Assembly (NCBI GenBank): GCA_030756715.1
Contig: JAVBJD010000002.1
Span: 4,085-68,084, forward strand
DNA from: Conexivisphaerales archaeon
GTDB taxonomy: Archaea; Thermoproteota; Nitrososphaeria; Conexivisphaerales; UBA164
Direction: 5' to 3'
Length of the DNA: 64,000 nucleotides
Positions within the stretch are counted from its first letter, which is position 1, and each line of letters begins with the position of its first letter. Below the pieces are notes generated by a model. That model was not told where the DNA came from, made no database searches, and was given only the letters and a program-made list of their open reading frames with translations. This document shows, one piece after another, positions 2,662-50,736 of this stretch. A program made the position numbers and the translations under genes.

Positions 2662-3630
2662 ATGGTTACAAACTTAACAGAAGAAGCCAAGGCTATATGG
2701 TCAAAGGCTATAATGACCAGGGATCCAAGTGAGAAGCTTAGACTTTTACAGCTGTTTTTTTCAAAGATGCCTCATCATAAGGGAACAGAAAAGCTAGAAG
2801 TTTCGATAAAAAGGCAGATGGCTTCATTAAAAGAAGAAATAGCTGAAAGCAAGAAAAAGAAAGCTGTAAGGAAAGACGTATGGATAGTAAAGAAAGAAGG
2901 CATTTTAGCTGTGGTAGTTGACTTCAATTTTACAGATTCGTTTCACAGGCTCACCGGCGTAAATATGTCAAAGTATGAAGTGTTTTCAAGGCCCGTTGTG
3001 GCTCCTATAAAAGCTCTAGATGTAACGCTTCAGACATATTACGCTCCGATCGGCGCTGGAAATTTCAGAAATTTCCTCAAGTTAATAAAACAGGCTGATG
3101 TGCTCATCATTGCAGACAAAAGGGCCATCGAGCTGATCGAAAATGAAGGCATAGTGCTAGTAACGAACAAAAGGAGACTTGTTGAAATCAGCAGGATGCC
3201 GAGCGGCGGCATAAGGATAATAGGTAAATCAAAAAATATTAACGAAGAAGAGCTCAGGAAGTTTTTGAAGAGCTATGGGCTTGAGAACTGTGTTATAAAG
3301 CTTAGCGAAGACGCAACGCTTGACGACGTCGAAGATTACATATTCGGGAGGATGCAAAAAGTTTATGTTTTTCCAACATATGATAAAGAAAAAGACGTCA
3401 GAAACGTCCTCAACGCGCTTGGACTTATAAGGGTCTATACCTTGGATTCCTCTGGAGTTGTAGAAGGTCCGCCGCTTTTGGTAAATGAAAACAGCACTGC
3501 CCAGGATATTGCTAACAAGATAAGCATAAAGAACATGAGGTTTGCTTATCTTATCAGGGACAATATAAGGATAAAGGTAGGAAGCAACTTTGTCTTAAAA
3601 GACGGTGACAAAATAAGGATAGTGCCATAA
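2662..3630 (+). CDS. DRG/Rbg-like TGS-domain protein with degenerate GTPase motifs
   Basis: Archaeal DRG N-terminus (MPHHKGTEKL), S5D2L-like insert (SGGIRIIG..LKSYGL) and C-terminal TGS (IRVYT..GDKIRI) present; no GxxxxGKS, DxxG or NKxD. Confidence 0.75.
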   Translation: MVTNLTEEAKAIWSKAIMTRDPSEKLRLLQLFFSKMPHHKGTEKLEVSIKRQMASLKEEIAESKKKKAVRKDVWIVKKEGILAVVVDFNFTDSFHRLTGVNMSKYEVFSRPVVAPIKALDVTLQTYYAPIGAGNFRNFLKLIKQADVLIIADKRAIELIENEGIVLVTNKRRLVEISRMPSGGIRIIGKSKNINEEELRKFLKSYGLENCVIKLSEDATLDDVEDYIFGRMQKVYVFPTYDKEKDVRNVLNALGLIRVYTLDSSGVVEGPPLLVNENSTAQDIANKISIKNMRFAYLIRDNIRIKVGSNFVLKDGDKIRIVP

Positions 3631-3642
3631 GATGGTCTCCGC

Positions 3643-3873
3643 GTGAACTACCCCAATCCTGCGATTGGGACTTTGTTCAAAGGCACCCCTACAGTATGAG
3701 TGATACTGTTGAATTCAGAGACTCGTGGAAGAGGCGCGATCATCCTAGGGCGATTCACCTGGGTTCCACAGGAAAGCCGTCTCTAGCAAAAAATTACTTG
3801 CTGAAATGTTTAAAAAGTTTTATATTATTCATTCTTTCCCTCGCGGAAAGGGCTTTCCTCCCCATTTATCGCC
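3643..3873 (-). mobile_element. Non-autonomous IS200/IS605-family mini-element (omegaRNA/PATE-like), no ORF
   Basis: Minus strand ends ...cccaatcgcaggattggggtagttcac (RE-type hairpin + TTCAC); left-end hairpin ctttcc-ctcgc-ggaaag; TTGAT directly 5' of the left end; homologous to 50323-50543. Confidence 0.7.
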
Positions 3874-3879
3874 ATCAAG

Positions 3880-3900
3880 TTTAAGACTTTCAGTCTTAAA
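3880..3900. terminator. Perfect 9-bp hairpin, possibly a terminator downstream of dph2
   Basis: tttaagact-ttc-agtcttaaa, 30 nt past the dph2 stop. Confidence 0.3.
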
Positions 3901-3930
3901 ATGCCTTATTTTATTTGTAGTAAACAAAAA

Positions 3931-4935
3931 TCAGAACCATAAAGCTCCTCTATAAGGGTTTGTAACTGGGATCTTCTTCTTTATCTTTATCAGCGCAAGA
4001 GCTTCTGGATAAGAAAGCAACGGTTTTTTGAAGCCTTCAACGTTCATGGGTATCCGTGGACAGGCTGTCTCAACAAAAGCATCCATGCCTTGAAACTTGT
4101 TAACCTTTTCAGGCGTTATTTCGTTCATAATAATCATGAAAGTTGACACGTTGAATTTTTTAAGCTCTCTACTGATGAAGTCTGCTTTCTGAAGGTTTGC
4201 CTGTCCTTCTTTTTCACCTACTATTATGCCTATCTTTTCTGCCCTGTTTGCTATAGCTATCCTTGCAAAAGAAGCTTTAAGGTATTTGTTTGCTTCTTCG
4301 CGCACGCCAGTTATCTCTTTTGTATGCGGATCAAGCATGAAGGTTTCCTTTTCAGTTGAAAGTTGCAAACCAATAGCGTGAAAAAGGCTTTCTCCAAGGA
4401 AAAAATTGTAATCTGTGTTTGGGACAAAAGCTGAATAAAAATTACAACCAAGAACCTGGCCTAGCAAAAGAGTTTCGTATTTGCCAGGTTTAGCTATATC
4501 GACCTTTCCTTCTAGCTTTTTTATAAGCATAGTATAAGCAGAATAATAGTTTGAAATCGTGTAGATCCCAATTTTACCGTTAAGTCTGTTTTCATTTATA
4601 TATCCGATCATCAGCTCTGTTATTTTTTCTATATCTTCTTCGTCAAAAATGTACTGAAAATTTATGAACCTTACATTTCCTATACTCTCAAGCCCTATTG
4701 TGTGTCCCACGTTTAAAATCAGGTCGGCTCCTGCTACGTACGCCTTGTTTAGCTGAAGGTCGCAGGAGCCATAAGATGGATCTCCGGATACATAAGCTCT
4801 AACTCCCATTGTCTCTAACTTTTTACCAAGATCTAGCAAAACGTCAACTATCCCGTCTGGACCAACAATTATTACTTTTTTTGGCTTCTCTTTTCTTACT
4901 ATATCTTCTACTCTCTCCCAGTCTAACCAGATCAA
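3931..4935 (-). CDS. dph2: Diphthamide biosynthesis enzyme Dph2 (Dph1/Dph2 family)
   Basis: PDG, DPSYGSCDL, VLGCNF, GEKEGQ, ETACPRI with three Fe-S cysteines; adjacent to rpl10e. Confidence 0.87.
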   Translation of the reverse strand: MIWLDWERVEDIVRKEKPKKVIIVGPDGIVDVLLDLGKKLETMGVRAYVSGDPSYGSCDLQLNKAYVAGADLILNVGHTIGLESIGNVRFINFQYIFDEEDIEKITELMIGYINENRLNGKIGIYTISNYYSAYTMLIKKLEGKVDIAKPGKYETLLLGQVLGCNFYSAFVPNTDYNFFLGESLFHAIGLQLSTEKETFMLDPHTKEITGVREEANKYLKASFARIAIANRAEKIGIIVGEKEGQANLQKADFISRELKKFNVSTFMIIMNEITPEKVNKFQGMDAFVETACPRIPMNVEGFKKPLLSYPEALALIKIKKKIPVTNPYRGALWF

Positions 4936-49843: not shown

Positions 49844-50278
49844 TTAGATAGTGAACTCTAGCTGAAGCACTTCGAGTTTCTTACCACTTTCATGAGGATA
49901 TATAACCGTAGCGTTGTAGCTATCTCCAAATATTATAACTATAAGGTCCTGATCGCGATATATTTCTGCCTGAAAGCCCGCTACAAAGAGCGTGCCCAGT
50001 GAATTTATTCTGTTTATTACATCTCTGAGCAGATCAGAAAAACCATCTTCCAGTAATTTTTGACAGTTCAGAGCTCCATGATCTTCGTGGACGTCAACTT
50101 CAAATTCACAAAGATCGGAGGCGCTTTCCGAAGCGTTTTTAAGCTCTTTTTGAAGGTCTAAGTTTTCTTGAGTTGGAACGGCTTCAACTGATAGTAACGC
50201 GCTGGTATTGCCGTTTTCTCTCATCCTAGATATTTCCTTATCCAGCTTTTCCCAACCAGATGATGCCACTTTAAACAT
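49844..50278 (-). CDS. Hypothetical protein (acidic, no recognised motif)
   Basis: 144-aa ORF with ATG start and an upstream TATA-like aaaggttaataa. Confidence 0.55.
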   Translation of the reverse strand: MFKVASSGWEKLDKEISRMRENGNTSALLSVEAVPTQENLDLQKELKNASESASDLCEFEVDVHEDHGALNCQKLLEDGFSDLLRDVINRINSLGTLFVAGFQAEIYRDQDLIVIIFGDSYNATVIYPHESGKKLEVLQLEFTI

Positions 50279-50322
50279 TTGTTTCCCTCATGCTTAAGTA
50301 CAAGTGCTTGTTATTAACCTTT

Positions 50323-50543
50323 GTGAACTACCCCCGCCTTTGCAGTTGGGGCTTCTGCTTCACTGGCAAGACTCTTGACCTGCGATCGTGGAAGTCTCAC
50401 CGTCCTCAAGCATACCGTCTGCGTTCCACGGGCAAAACCCTTTCGGACAAAAATACTATATCAACTTCATTTTATAAATTTGTCTATAATGGGCTATCCG
50501 CCTCCTCCCTCACGTAAAGGAGACTTTGCCTCCATTAATCCGC
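50323..50543 (-). mobile_element. Non-autonomous IS200/IS605-family mini-element (omegaRNA/PATE-like), no ORF
   Basis: Minus strand ends gaagcagaagccccaactgcaaaggcgggggtagttcac; left end gcggattaatggaggcaaagtctcctttacgtgagggag preceded by TTTAT; homologous to 3643-3873. Confidence 0.72.
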
Positions 50544-50736
50544 ATAAAGTTAAATTTATTTCAAAAACGATAAGAAAAATGGTAGAGCGATCAACGTTAG
50601 GTTTGATTATTGACCTTATTAATATAGAACCAAAGCCTCGCATTTTTCATTACTGACAGGTGTGCTATGCGTTTTTGGGGAAAGATTAAATAATAAGCCC
50701 GTCAATGTTTTCAAAAAGTTAAAAACTGAAGGCAAA

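Follow-up and report, generated by a model that had tools for sequence, protein, structure and literature searches.

The window, by which we mean the whole 64-kb stretch of DNA analysed here, contains genes for Dph2, L10e, an archaemetzincin and a beta-CASP nuclease and has a GC content of 40%, with tRNAs of ~70% GC, which identifies it as part of an archaeal chromosome. Homologues of its DRG-like protein carry the label Nitrososphaeria, and the window sequence is also present in the MAG GCA_049976885.1. Two segments of the minus strand, copy A (3643-3879, 237 nt) and copy B (50323-50549, 227 nt), were found to have a common layout, in which a hairpin-bearing left end and an archaeal TATA box are joined directly to a right end of ~130-150 nt terminating in GGGTAGTTCAC (Table 1). 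The GC-richer region of this length begins near CCTGTGGAACNCAGG, holds the terminal hairpin and finishes with GGGGTAGTTCAC, a 12-mer that occurs exactly twice in the window, once in each copy. No third copy is present in the 64-kb window: with 2 mismatches, the 12-mer is matched at chance level, and the next-best score of the scaffold model described below is 11 bits.

All minus-strand sequence features listed in a preliminary description of copy A were recovered, including an ACAGTAT/ATACTGT hairpin. The same description pointed to a similar order and spacing of elements near 50323-50543, and alignment of the two copies bore this out: the order and spacing of the features match, conserved blocks are aligned, and the identity amounts to ~64-72%, the value of 72% referring to alignment columns. 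Judging from folding and sequence, the hairpins at the two ends are similar in form, copy A having CCCTTTCC-GCGA-GGGAAAG on the left and CCCAATC-GCAG-GATTGGG on the right; the left-end hairpins of copies B and A differ by changes on both arms. The absence of an ORF, as initially reported, holds for the minus strand but not for the plus strand, where two mechanical ORFs lie opposite copy A (3696-3884, 62 aa, and 3806-3955, 49 aa). These ORFs are most likely spurious, since the homology of the region is non-coding. Separately, a perfect 9-bp palindrome, TTTAAGACT-GAA-AGTCTTAAA (3880-3900, minus strand), is located directly upstream of copy A and downstream of dph2. Its 3' arm supplies the TTAAA that adjoins the left end of copy A, and the palindrome may be either a hairpin resembling a terminator or a single-stranded target that is preferred.

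Table 1. Features of copies A and B in the window, with the evidence on which each assignment is based
Feature	Position	Strand	Basis
Copy A, complete 237-nt element	3643..3879	-	boundaries by analogy with the empty site of B and left-end alignment; right end by the family-wide GTTCAC terminus
Copy A, TAM position: TTAAA, one base off the family TTTAA	3880..3884	-	sequence; L072 also has a TTAAA/CTTG junction
Copy A, TTGAT, then ggcgataaatggggaggaaagccc	3878-3874	-	sequence inspection
Copy A, left end: hairpin CTTTCC/GGAAAG (6 bp, 3850-3834) and alternative GGAAAG/CTTTCC pairing	3817..3879	-	fold; aligned to left ends of L007 and L037
Copy A, TATA box TTTTTAAA	3809..3816	-	aligns with the tnpB-proximal left-end TATA of L007 and L037
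Copy A, predicted omegaRNA scaffold	3643..3791	-	covariance model R1, 54 bits, E 6e-14 (inflated, see text)
Copy A, CCUG/CAGG hairpin	3772-3758	-	scaffold model
Copy A, GTGGAA pairing with TTCCAC	3769-3764 with 3730-3725	-	sequence inspection
Copy A, terminal hairpin CCCAATC/GATTGGG	3669-3652	-	scaffold model
Copy A, terminus GGGGTAGTTCAC (RNA GGGGUAGUUCAC)	3654-3643	-	sequence inspection
Copy A, predicted guide GCGGAGACCATCTTATGGCA	3623..3642	-	position right after UUCAC, as in S. islandicus TnpB7 (PMC11043419)
Copy B, complete 227-nt element	50323..50549	-	alignment to L067 breaks at 50550/50322; intervening segment missing in L067
Copy B, TAM TTTAA	50550..50554	-	L067 empty site; at least 13 independent sites
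Copy B, left-end hairpin, 9 bp, GUCUCCUUU/GGGAGGAGC	50500..50524	-	fold
Copy B, TATA box TTTATAAA	50471..50478	-	left-end alignment
Copy B, predicted omegaRNA scaffold, terminus GGGGGUAGUUCAC	50323..50451	-	R1, 47.9 bits, E 4e-12 (inflated, see text)
Copy B, terminal hairpin	50351-50331	-	scaffold model
Copy B, predicted guide AAAGGTTAATAACAAGCACT	50303..50322	-	identical to the sequence after TTTAA in the L067 empty site

The right ends and the 3' ends of tnpB genes

Two blocks common to copies A and B were combined into the search pattern GTGGAACNCAG-N(80-110)-GGGTAGTTCAC, which matched 16 loci in 596 Gb of genomes and 37 loci in metagenomes (individual loci are denoted by L numbers). Nearly all of these are either tnpB 3' ends or protein-less mini elements laid out like A and B; among the 16 genome loci, only L011, from a GC-rich Acidoferrum, resembles a chance match. 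A full tnpB ORF enters the scaffold or stops just short of it in L006, L007, L014, L037, L038 and L046, and a partial tnpB is present at ~13 more pattern loci. The tnpB-linked loci belong to Nitrososphaeria, Methanosarcina, Chitinophagales and Fretibacterium; just upstream of their scaffolds lie a zinc finger and the RuvC-III motif DRD...AA. The encoded TnpB proteins contain the Pfam domains OrfB_IS605 and Cas12f1-like_TNB and match the structures of ISDra2 TnpB (8bf8, 8exa and 8h1j).

Nine tnpB-linked scaffolds, none of them from the window, served to build a covariance model, R1, which was run with filters off. In the 64 kb, it detected only copies A and B, with scores (Table 1) that are inflated because 21 nt of the scaffold are fixed by the search pattern. 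R1 also detects divergent scaffolds that lie outside the search pattern and are thus free of this circularity. One of them is found at the tnpB 3' end in L072, a locus that was reached through TnpB protein homology alone; it scores 71 bits and reads ACGGAACATAGG instead of the pattern. In an alignment of 58 distinct sequences fitted to the model, 92.8% of the cells in the two R1 helices are paired, compared with 35-45% in slid controls, and compensatory double changes are present in 11 of the 20 helix pairs. The family-wide covariation favours a short CCUG...CAGG hairpin around UGGAACG together with the terminal hairpin, and a GTTCAC terminus is common to all family members. The GTGGAA/TTCCAC stem proposed initially is present in both A and B but is confined to them. 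By contrast, the proposal that a TnpB omegaRNA scaffold makes up the right part, ending in GTTCAC and followed by a guide taken from the flank, is upheld, the same scaffold overlapping the tnpB 3' ends in archaeal and bacterial relatives. A covariance-model search against known families, suggested along with that proposal, retrieved no counterpart: Rfam 15 returned three tRNAs only for the whole window at the gathering score, and with relaxed thresholds nothing rose above noise at copies A and B. OmegaRNA-type elements of this kind have no Rfam family at present.

The pattern loci from genomes and metagenomes were taken together and sorted by tblastn, in a sample that the pattern itself biases to one subfamily. 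In this sample, a full tnpB is present at 6 loci, a partial tnpB at ~13 loci (many at contig ends) and an N-terminal tnpB fragment fused to the scaffold at 3 loci, and ~25 plus 4 loci are TnpB-less copies, all with a TATA box. The TnpB-less copies, which outnumber the tnpB-bearing ones here, occupy at least 17 distinct insertion sites, each with a different flanking guide. Neither copy exceeds ~70% identity to any scaffold in the sample, and the two share 64% identity, so that A and B are old, separate insertions.

Further variants of the element were seen in the same sample. At L017, L032, L036/L053/L063/L064 and L039, the TATA box and the full scaffold are kept and the left-end hairpins are lost, so that these promoter-omegaRNA copies are presumably immobile; L040 carries an intact element at the site of the L036 group. 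A second deletion class is represented by L003/L048, L033, L066 and L055, as well as L045 (4493-4645), L030 (2779-2922) and L057 (2880-3024). Here, a promoter-like CCTTA(C/T)AGAAA(T/C)GTT lies ~135 nt upstream, and a short internal piece of tnpB (...GG(I/E)..A...AS) precedes the scaffold.

Insertion site, left end and promoter

A clean empty site for copy B was found in L067 (GCA_964342655.1), which has ~90% DNA identity to the window and aligns on both sides of the copy, with a break at window positions 50550/50322. The empty site reads ...AAATAAATTTAA/AAAGGTTAATAACAAGCACTTG..., also written ...AAATTTAA/AAAGGTTAATAAC... (TTTAA/AAAGG). The occupied site in the window reads TTTAA followed by C TTTATGCGG...GGGGGTAGTTCAC and then AAAGGTTAATAAC, with 227 nt between TTTAA and AAAGG. 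Thus, copy B is a 227-nt insertion 3' of TTTAA, without target duplication. TTTAA(C) also stands directly before the left end at no fewer than 13 independent insertion sites, the upstream sequences of which are unrelated. For copy B, then, the insertion itself, its boundaries, the TAM and the identity of the guide to the vacant-site target are established.

The preliminary description had instead placed the insertion 3' of TTGAT. This candidate TAM is ruled out by the empty site and by the left-end junctions just mentioned, TTGAT, TTTAT and TTTTT being variants of nucleotides 2-6 of the left end itself. The boundaries given at that time were also 6 nt too short on the left, and the alignment break relative to the empty site shifts them outward in both copies, to the extents listed in Table 1. 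The outer left boundary of copy A was placed at C3879 by homology with B; the pentanucleotide before it, TTAAA, differs from TTTAA at the position to which TnpB7 of S. islandicus is most sensitive. This IS605-type TnpB7 uses the TAM TTTAA and an RNA that terminates in UUCAC and is followed at once by the guide (PMC11043419).

The suggestion that an empty site be sought in relatives was thus borne out for B but not for A, for which none that is clean was found among the 70-73% and 85% relatives. In the 70-73% relatives, dph2 and the DRG-like gene abut, lying 1-6 nt apart, and the flanks are therefore not comparable. In the 85% relatives, the A site is occupied by 200-230 nt of other (unrelated or decayed) sequence, in which a left-end remnant is marginal in L027/L028 (nhmmer E 0.014) and not significant in L018/L019. 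As for the B site, it is empty in the ~90% relative, retains only ...GGTAGTTCAC at the identical junction in the 86% relatives (L068/L069) and shows nothing in a 63% relative. The decayed neighbour sequences in relatives receive no score with the scaffold model. Contigs of several relatives (L012, L025, L026 and L029) end at these elements, as expected for repeats.

Two observations concern the neighbourhood of copy A in other genomes. The flank ...CCATCCTGC(G/A)CTAAAAAAGTTTTGATC(G/T)ACTG is found downstream of the DRG-like gene in an 89% relative (L025, L026) as well as upstream of truncated mini copies elsewhere (L036/L053/L063/L064), and may belong to another repeat. In L029 (2912-2927), where the DRG-like protein is 98% identical, the 16 nt that follow the stop codon agree with the L018 type of the 85% relative and not with the window, so that exchange or re-invasion between close lineages may have affected the dph2/DRG intergenic region.

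The full-length elements L007 and L037 read TTTAAC/TTTATGGGGGTTAAGGGGCGAAAGTCCCC...GATAGCC..TTACA.CAGGTTTTTATATAAAG...GTGCCCAAC, followed by tnpB. Copies A and B align along this whole left end, and their TATA boxes align with TTTTTATATAA in the tnpB-proximal left end of L007, L037 and all mini copies. The protein-less copies have the identical type of left end, including the TATA box, in which ...GCCCAAA is joined directly to GGGCTTTGCCTGTGGAAC; judging from the alignment, this junction corresponds to a deletion of tnpB. Because the mini copies thus carry the left-end TATA of tnpB next to the scaffold, what had been described as a promoter of the mini element's own is the left-end BRE/TATA promoter that normally drives tnpB, moved to its present place by the internal deletion. 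The promoter assigned to copy A on the basis of its TATA-like sequence is accordingly retained, with this homology to the left-end promoter of full-length tnpB elements added.

The predicted guide of copy A (20 nt) is antisense to the DRG-like gene (2662-3630). The antisense orientation with respect to the 3' end of this gene had been recognized before, but most of the overlap is with the 3' UTR (12 nt), the remainder consisting of the stop codon and the last 5 coding nt. The guide of A has no second match anywhere in the window, and that of B has one other match in the window, with 2 mismatches and no TAM, which is within chance expectation; TAM-flanked targets in trans are absent from the window for either guide.

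Origin, proposed operation and alternative readings

Copies A and B are very probably non-autonomous, protein-less deletion derivatives of an IS200/IS605-family tnpB element, that is, PATE-like elements or stand-alone omegaRNAs. The initial designation as a TnpB-less IS200/IS605 mini element is in keeping with the homology of both ends to tnpB-carrying elements. On the strength of these alignments, which establish the ancestry of both ends in A as well as in B, an internal deletion can be taken to have eliminated tnpB, so that the left end, with its TnpA-type hairpin and promoter, now abuts the terminal ~130-150 nt of the right end. As in omegaRNAs, the scaffold is the 3' end of tnpB in full-length relatives, its structure covaries, and the guide of B equals the vacant site beside the TAM; as in PATEs, insertion occurs at a short motif without target duplication or terminal inverted repeats, and both ends are homologous to tnpB/tnpA elements.

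Transcription, loading onto TnpB and cleavage in the host organism would proceed as follows. Transcription would begin ~30 nt downstream of the TATA box, the usual TATA-to-start spacing predicting starts at ~G3787 (A) and ~G50448 (B), at a distance of 29-30 nt counted from where the TATA box begins. The transcript would comprise the scaffold ending in ...GGGUAGUUCAC and continue into the flank, the first 16-20 nucleotides of which would serve as the guide. A TnpB encoded by a complete element at another locus of the genome, or within the population, would bind the RNA of A or B, and the complex would cut the vacant allele at TTTAA plus a guide match (for B, TTTAA plus AAAGGTTAATAACAAG). Repair from the occupied copy would then restore the mini element, which would amount to selfish retention or homing. 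The occupied site itself would be spared because the target there is flanked by TTCAC in place of the TAM; S. islandicus TnpB7 does not cut its native TTCAC-flanked site (PMC11043419). Transfer to fresh TTTAA sites would require a Y1 TnpA in trans. The scheme follows the mechanism that has been published for PATEs and stand-alone omegaRNAs (PMC10055086, PMC10691335).

The proteins invoked in this scheme are not encoded in the 64-kb window: tblastn found no tnpB, the single weak match being the scaffold itself read as a TnpB tail, and no tnpA when the TnpA of L072 was used as the query. Both genes are present in related Nitrososphaeria. L072 (1071-2774; GCA_038873935.1, a Nitrososphaeria MAG) is a complete IS605-type unit, in which a Y1_Tnp gene (134 aa) overlaps tnpB (433 aa). 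Its scaffold is at 2615-2774, and its junction, TTTTAAA/CTTGTGAG, resembles that of copy A. In L012, at the end of the contig that also holds the empty B site of the ~90% relative, the scaffold follows a 3' remnant of tnpB, and copies of the tnpB type thus exist in the immediate lineage.

The lack of tnpB and tnpA in the window would also suit the plausible, although less likely, case that A and B are decaying, silent or functionless relics with no TnpB partner left in the genome. The same can be said of the divergence of A and B from each other and from all sampled copies, by which they could be inactive, of the 85-86% relatives, which hold only remnants at the orthologous sites, and of the TTAAA at the TAM position of A. 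However, none of the blocks that are invariant in the family is lost from A or B, the two hairpins persist with compensating changes, and a good TATA box stands at the right distance, whereas truly decayed neighbours get no model score. Furthermore, the B site is polymorphic with respect to the ~90% relative, which has the tnpB remnant and scaffold of L012, suggesting fairly recent activity in the lineage.

The 144-aa gene (49844-50278) downstream of copy B is read in the same direction as the copy, the end of which lies 44 nt from the ATG of the gene; the interval is free of T-runs, and the guide falls 25-44 nt upstream of the ATG. Past the scaffold of copy A, the first T-run (TTATTTT) comes ~30 nt on, within the end of the convergent gene. 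It is doubtful, nonetheless, that the copies act mainly as mobile promoters, through read-through into the 144-aa gene from B and antisense transcription into the DRG-like gene from A. The empty-site relative shares the 44 nt upstream of the gene, which it presumably expresses although B is absent there, and such transcription would be a side effect that leaves the conservation of the scaffold blocks unexplained.

In the archaeal TnpB clade linked with the scaffold (L007, L008 and P0078-P0197), Gln occupies the position of the RuvC-II catalytic Glu, and an acidic residue is present at +2. The motif [FY]Q[NDGKA][DE]..W was found in all 57 homologues with a listed motif, out of an alignment of 99 that reaches down to ~40% identity, whereas those TnpB partners of the scaffold that are bacterial or from Methanosarcina retain the Glu. 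The clade is probably equivalent to the archaeal branches termed 'RuvC-II rearranged' in Altae-Tran 2023, and TnpB branches with a RuvC-II that is 'rearranged but active' have been published (PMC10691335, PMC11579290). A reading of the Gln as the mark of a dead TnpB was set aside, because the residue is clade-wide, comes with the conserved acidic residue at +2, is found in elements present in multiple copies and fits the published active branches. The variant of the preliminary description in which the RNA guides a dead TnpB or regulator has nothing in its favour.

Adoption of A and B by the host as guide-RNA genes for regulation or defence, for instance with a nuclease-altered or dead TnpB, is very improbable: the Gln, the hairpin-less metagenome copies that still keep TATA and scaffold, the excess of TnpB-less copies in the sample and the placement of B just upstream of a gene and of A antisense to a gene end are compatible with it, but in the window the guides match their own flanks only, beside TTCAC and not a TAM, the Gln variant belongs to mobile, multi-copy elements and suits the active branches cited above, the loci of A and B are not conserved in relatives and show no sign of long-term conservation, and no tnpB-like ORF lies near either copy. 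The number of modules relative to tnpB in the sample, together with the hairpin-less copies, leaves a little room for a broader idea, to which we attach scant credence, namely that in thermophilic Nitrososphaeria the promoter-omegaRNA modules form a pool of guide-RNA genes for the rearranged-RuvC-II TnpB clade, with a role at the host level. If so, a single protein would have many chromosomal targets, in regulation, defence or directed recombination, and A and B would be kept through use and not through selfishness alone.

Comparison with known systems

Read as protein-less derivatives of a tnpB element, copies A and B can be set beside several described systems. Guide RNAs of TldR, a group of nuclease-dead TnpB repressors, are encoded beside tldR and direct the protein to a distant promoter with a TAM (PMC10705468). 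A and B resemble them in being TnpB-family guide RNAs with a guide near a host gene, but differ in lacking an adjacent protein gene and in having guides that match, within the window, only their own flanks. An identity as TldR-type guide RNAs was rejected on the same grounds, there being no nearby tnpB-like ORF and no TAM-flanked match elsewhere in the window. Haloarchaeal sotRNAs, reportedly described by Gomes-Filho et al. in 2015 as sense-overlapping RNAs from the 3' end of IS1341-type tnpB, are now understood as omegaRNAs. They overlap an intact tnpB, whereas A and B stand without one.

The elements of S. islandicus TnpB7 and SisTnpB1 (PMC11043419, PMC11579290) are, like A and B, archaeal and thermophilic, with a TTTAA TAM and a scaffold that terminates in UUCAC next to the guide. 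However, they carry tnpB (and tnpA), and A and B carry neither; the likeness of the scaffolds refers to the terminus. For a TnpB clade that occurs in TACK and other archaea, the occupied/empty pair of copy B fixes the TAM TTTAA, the element boundaries and the start of the guide without experiment, which helps in the annotation of such elements.

The omegaRNA identity of the right part and the PATE-like class of the whole element are of a kind previously described, to which A and B add an archaeal case. Stand-alone omegaRNAs (Altae-Tran et al. 2021, via PMC10691335) are mobilised loci without effector or transposase, found in effector-carrying lineages and able to act in trans with a TnpB that is compatible. 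Copies A and B similarly have no effector and no transposase, and are set apart by their host, a thermophilic Nitrososphaeria, and by the visible origin of the promoter, which appears to be that of the tnpB left end, fused by deletion. The PATEs of the IS605 family in Geobacillus stearothermophilus (Meers et al. 2023, PMC10055086) are minimal, protein-less elements that often encode an omegaRNA and require TnpB and TnpA in trans. A and B are likewise made up of the two ends and contain no protein gene, but they belong to another TnpB clade and another domain of life, with TTTAA as the TAM and an archaeal TATA promoter.

The general picture of OMEGA systems is unchanged by this case, which contributes a clear occupied/empty pair and a visible promoter origin and may be useful for choosing thermostable TnpB/omegaRNA pairs. 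Copies A and B thus appear to offer a natural example, from an uncultured thermophilic archaeal lineage, of a stand-alone guide-RNA gene born by one internal deletion.
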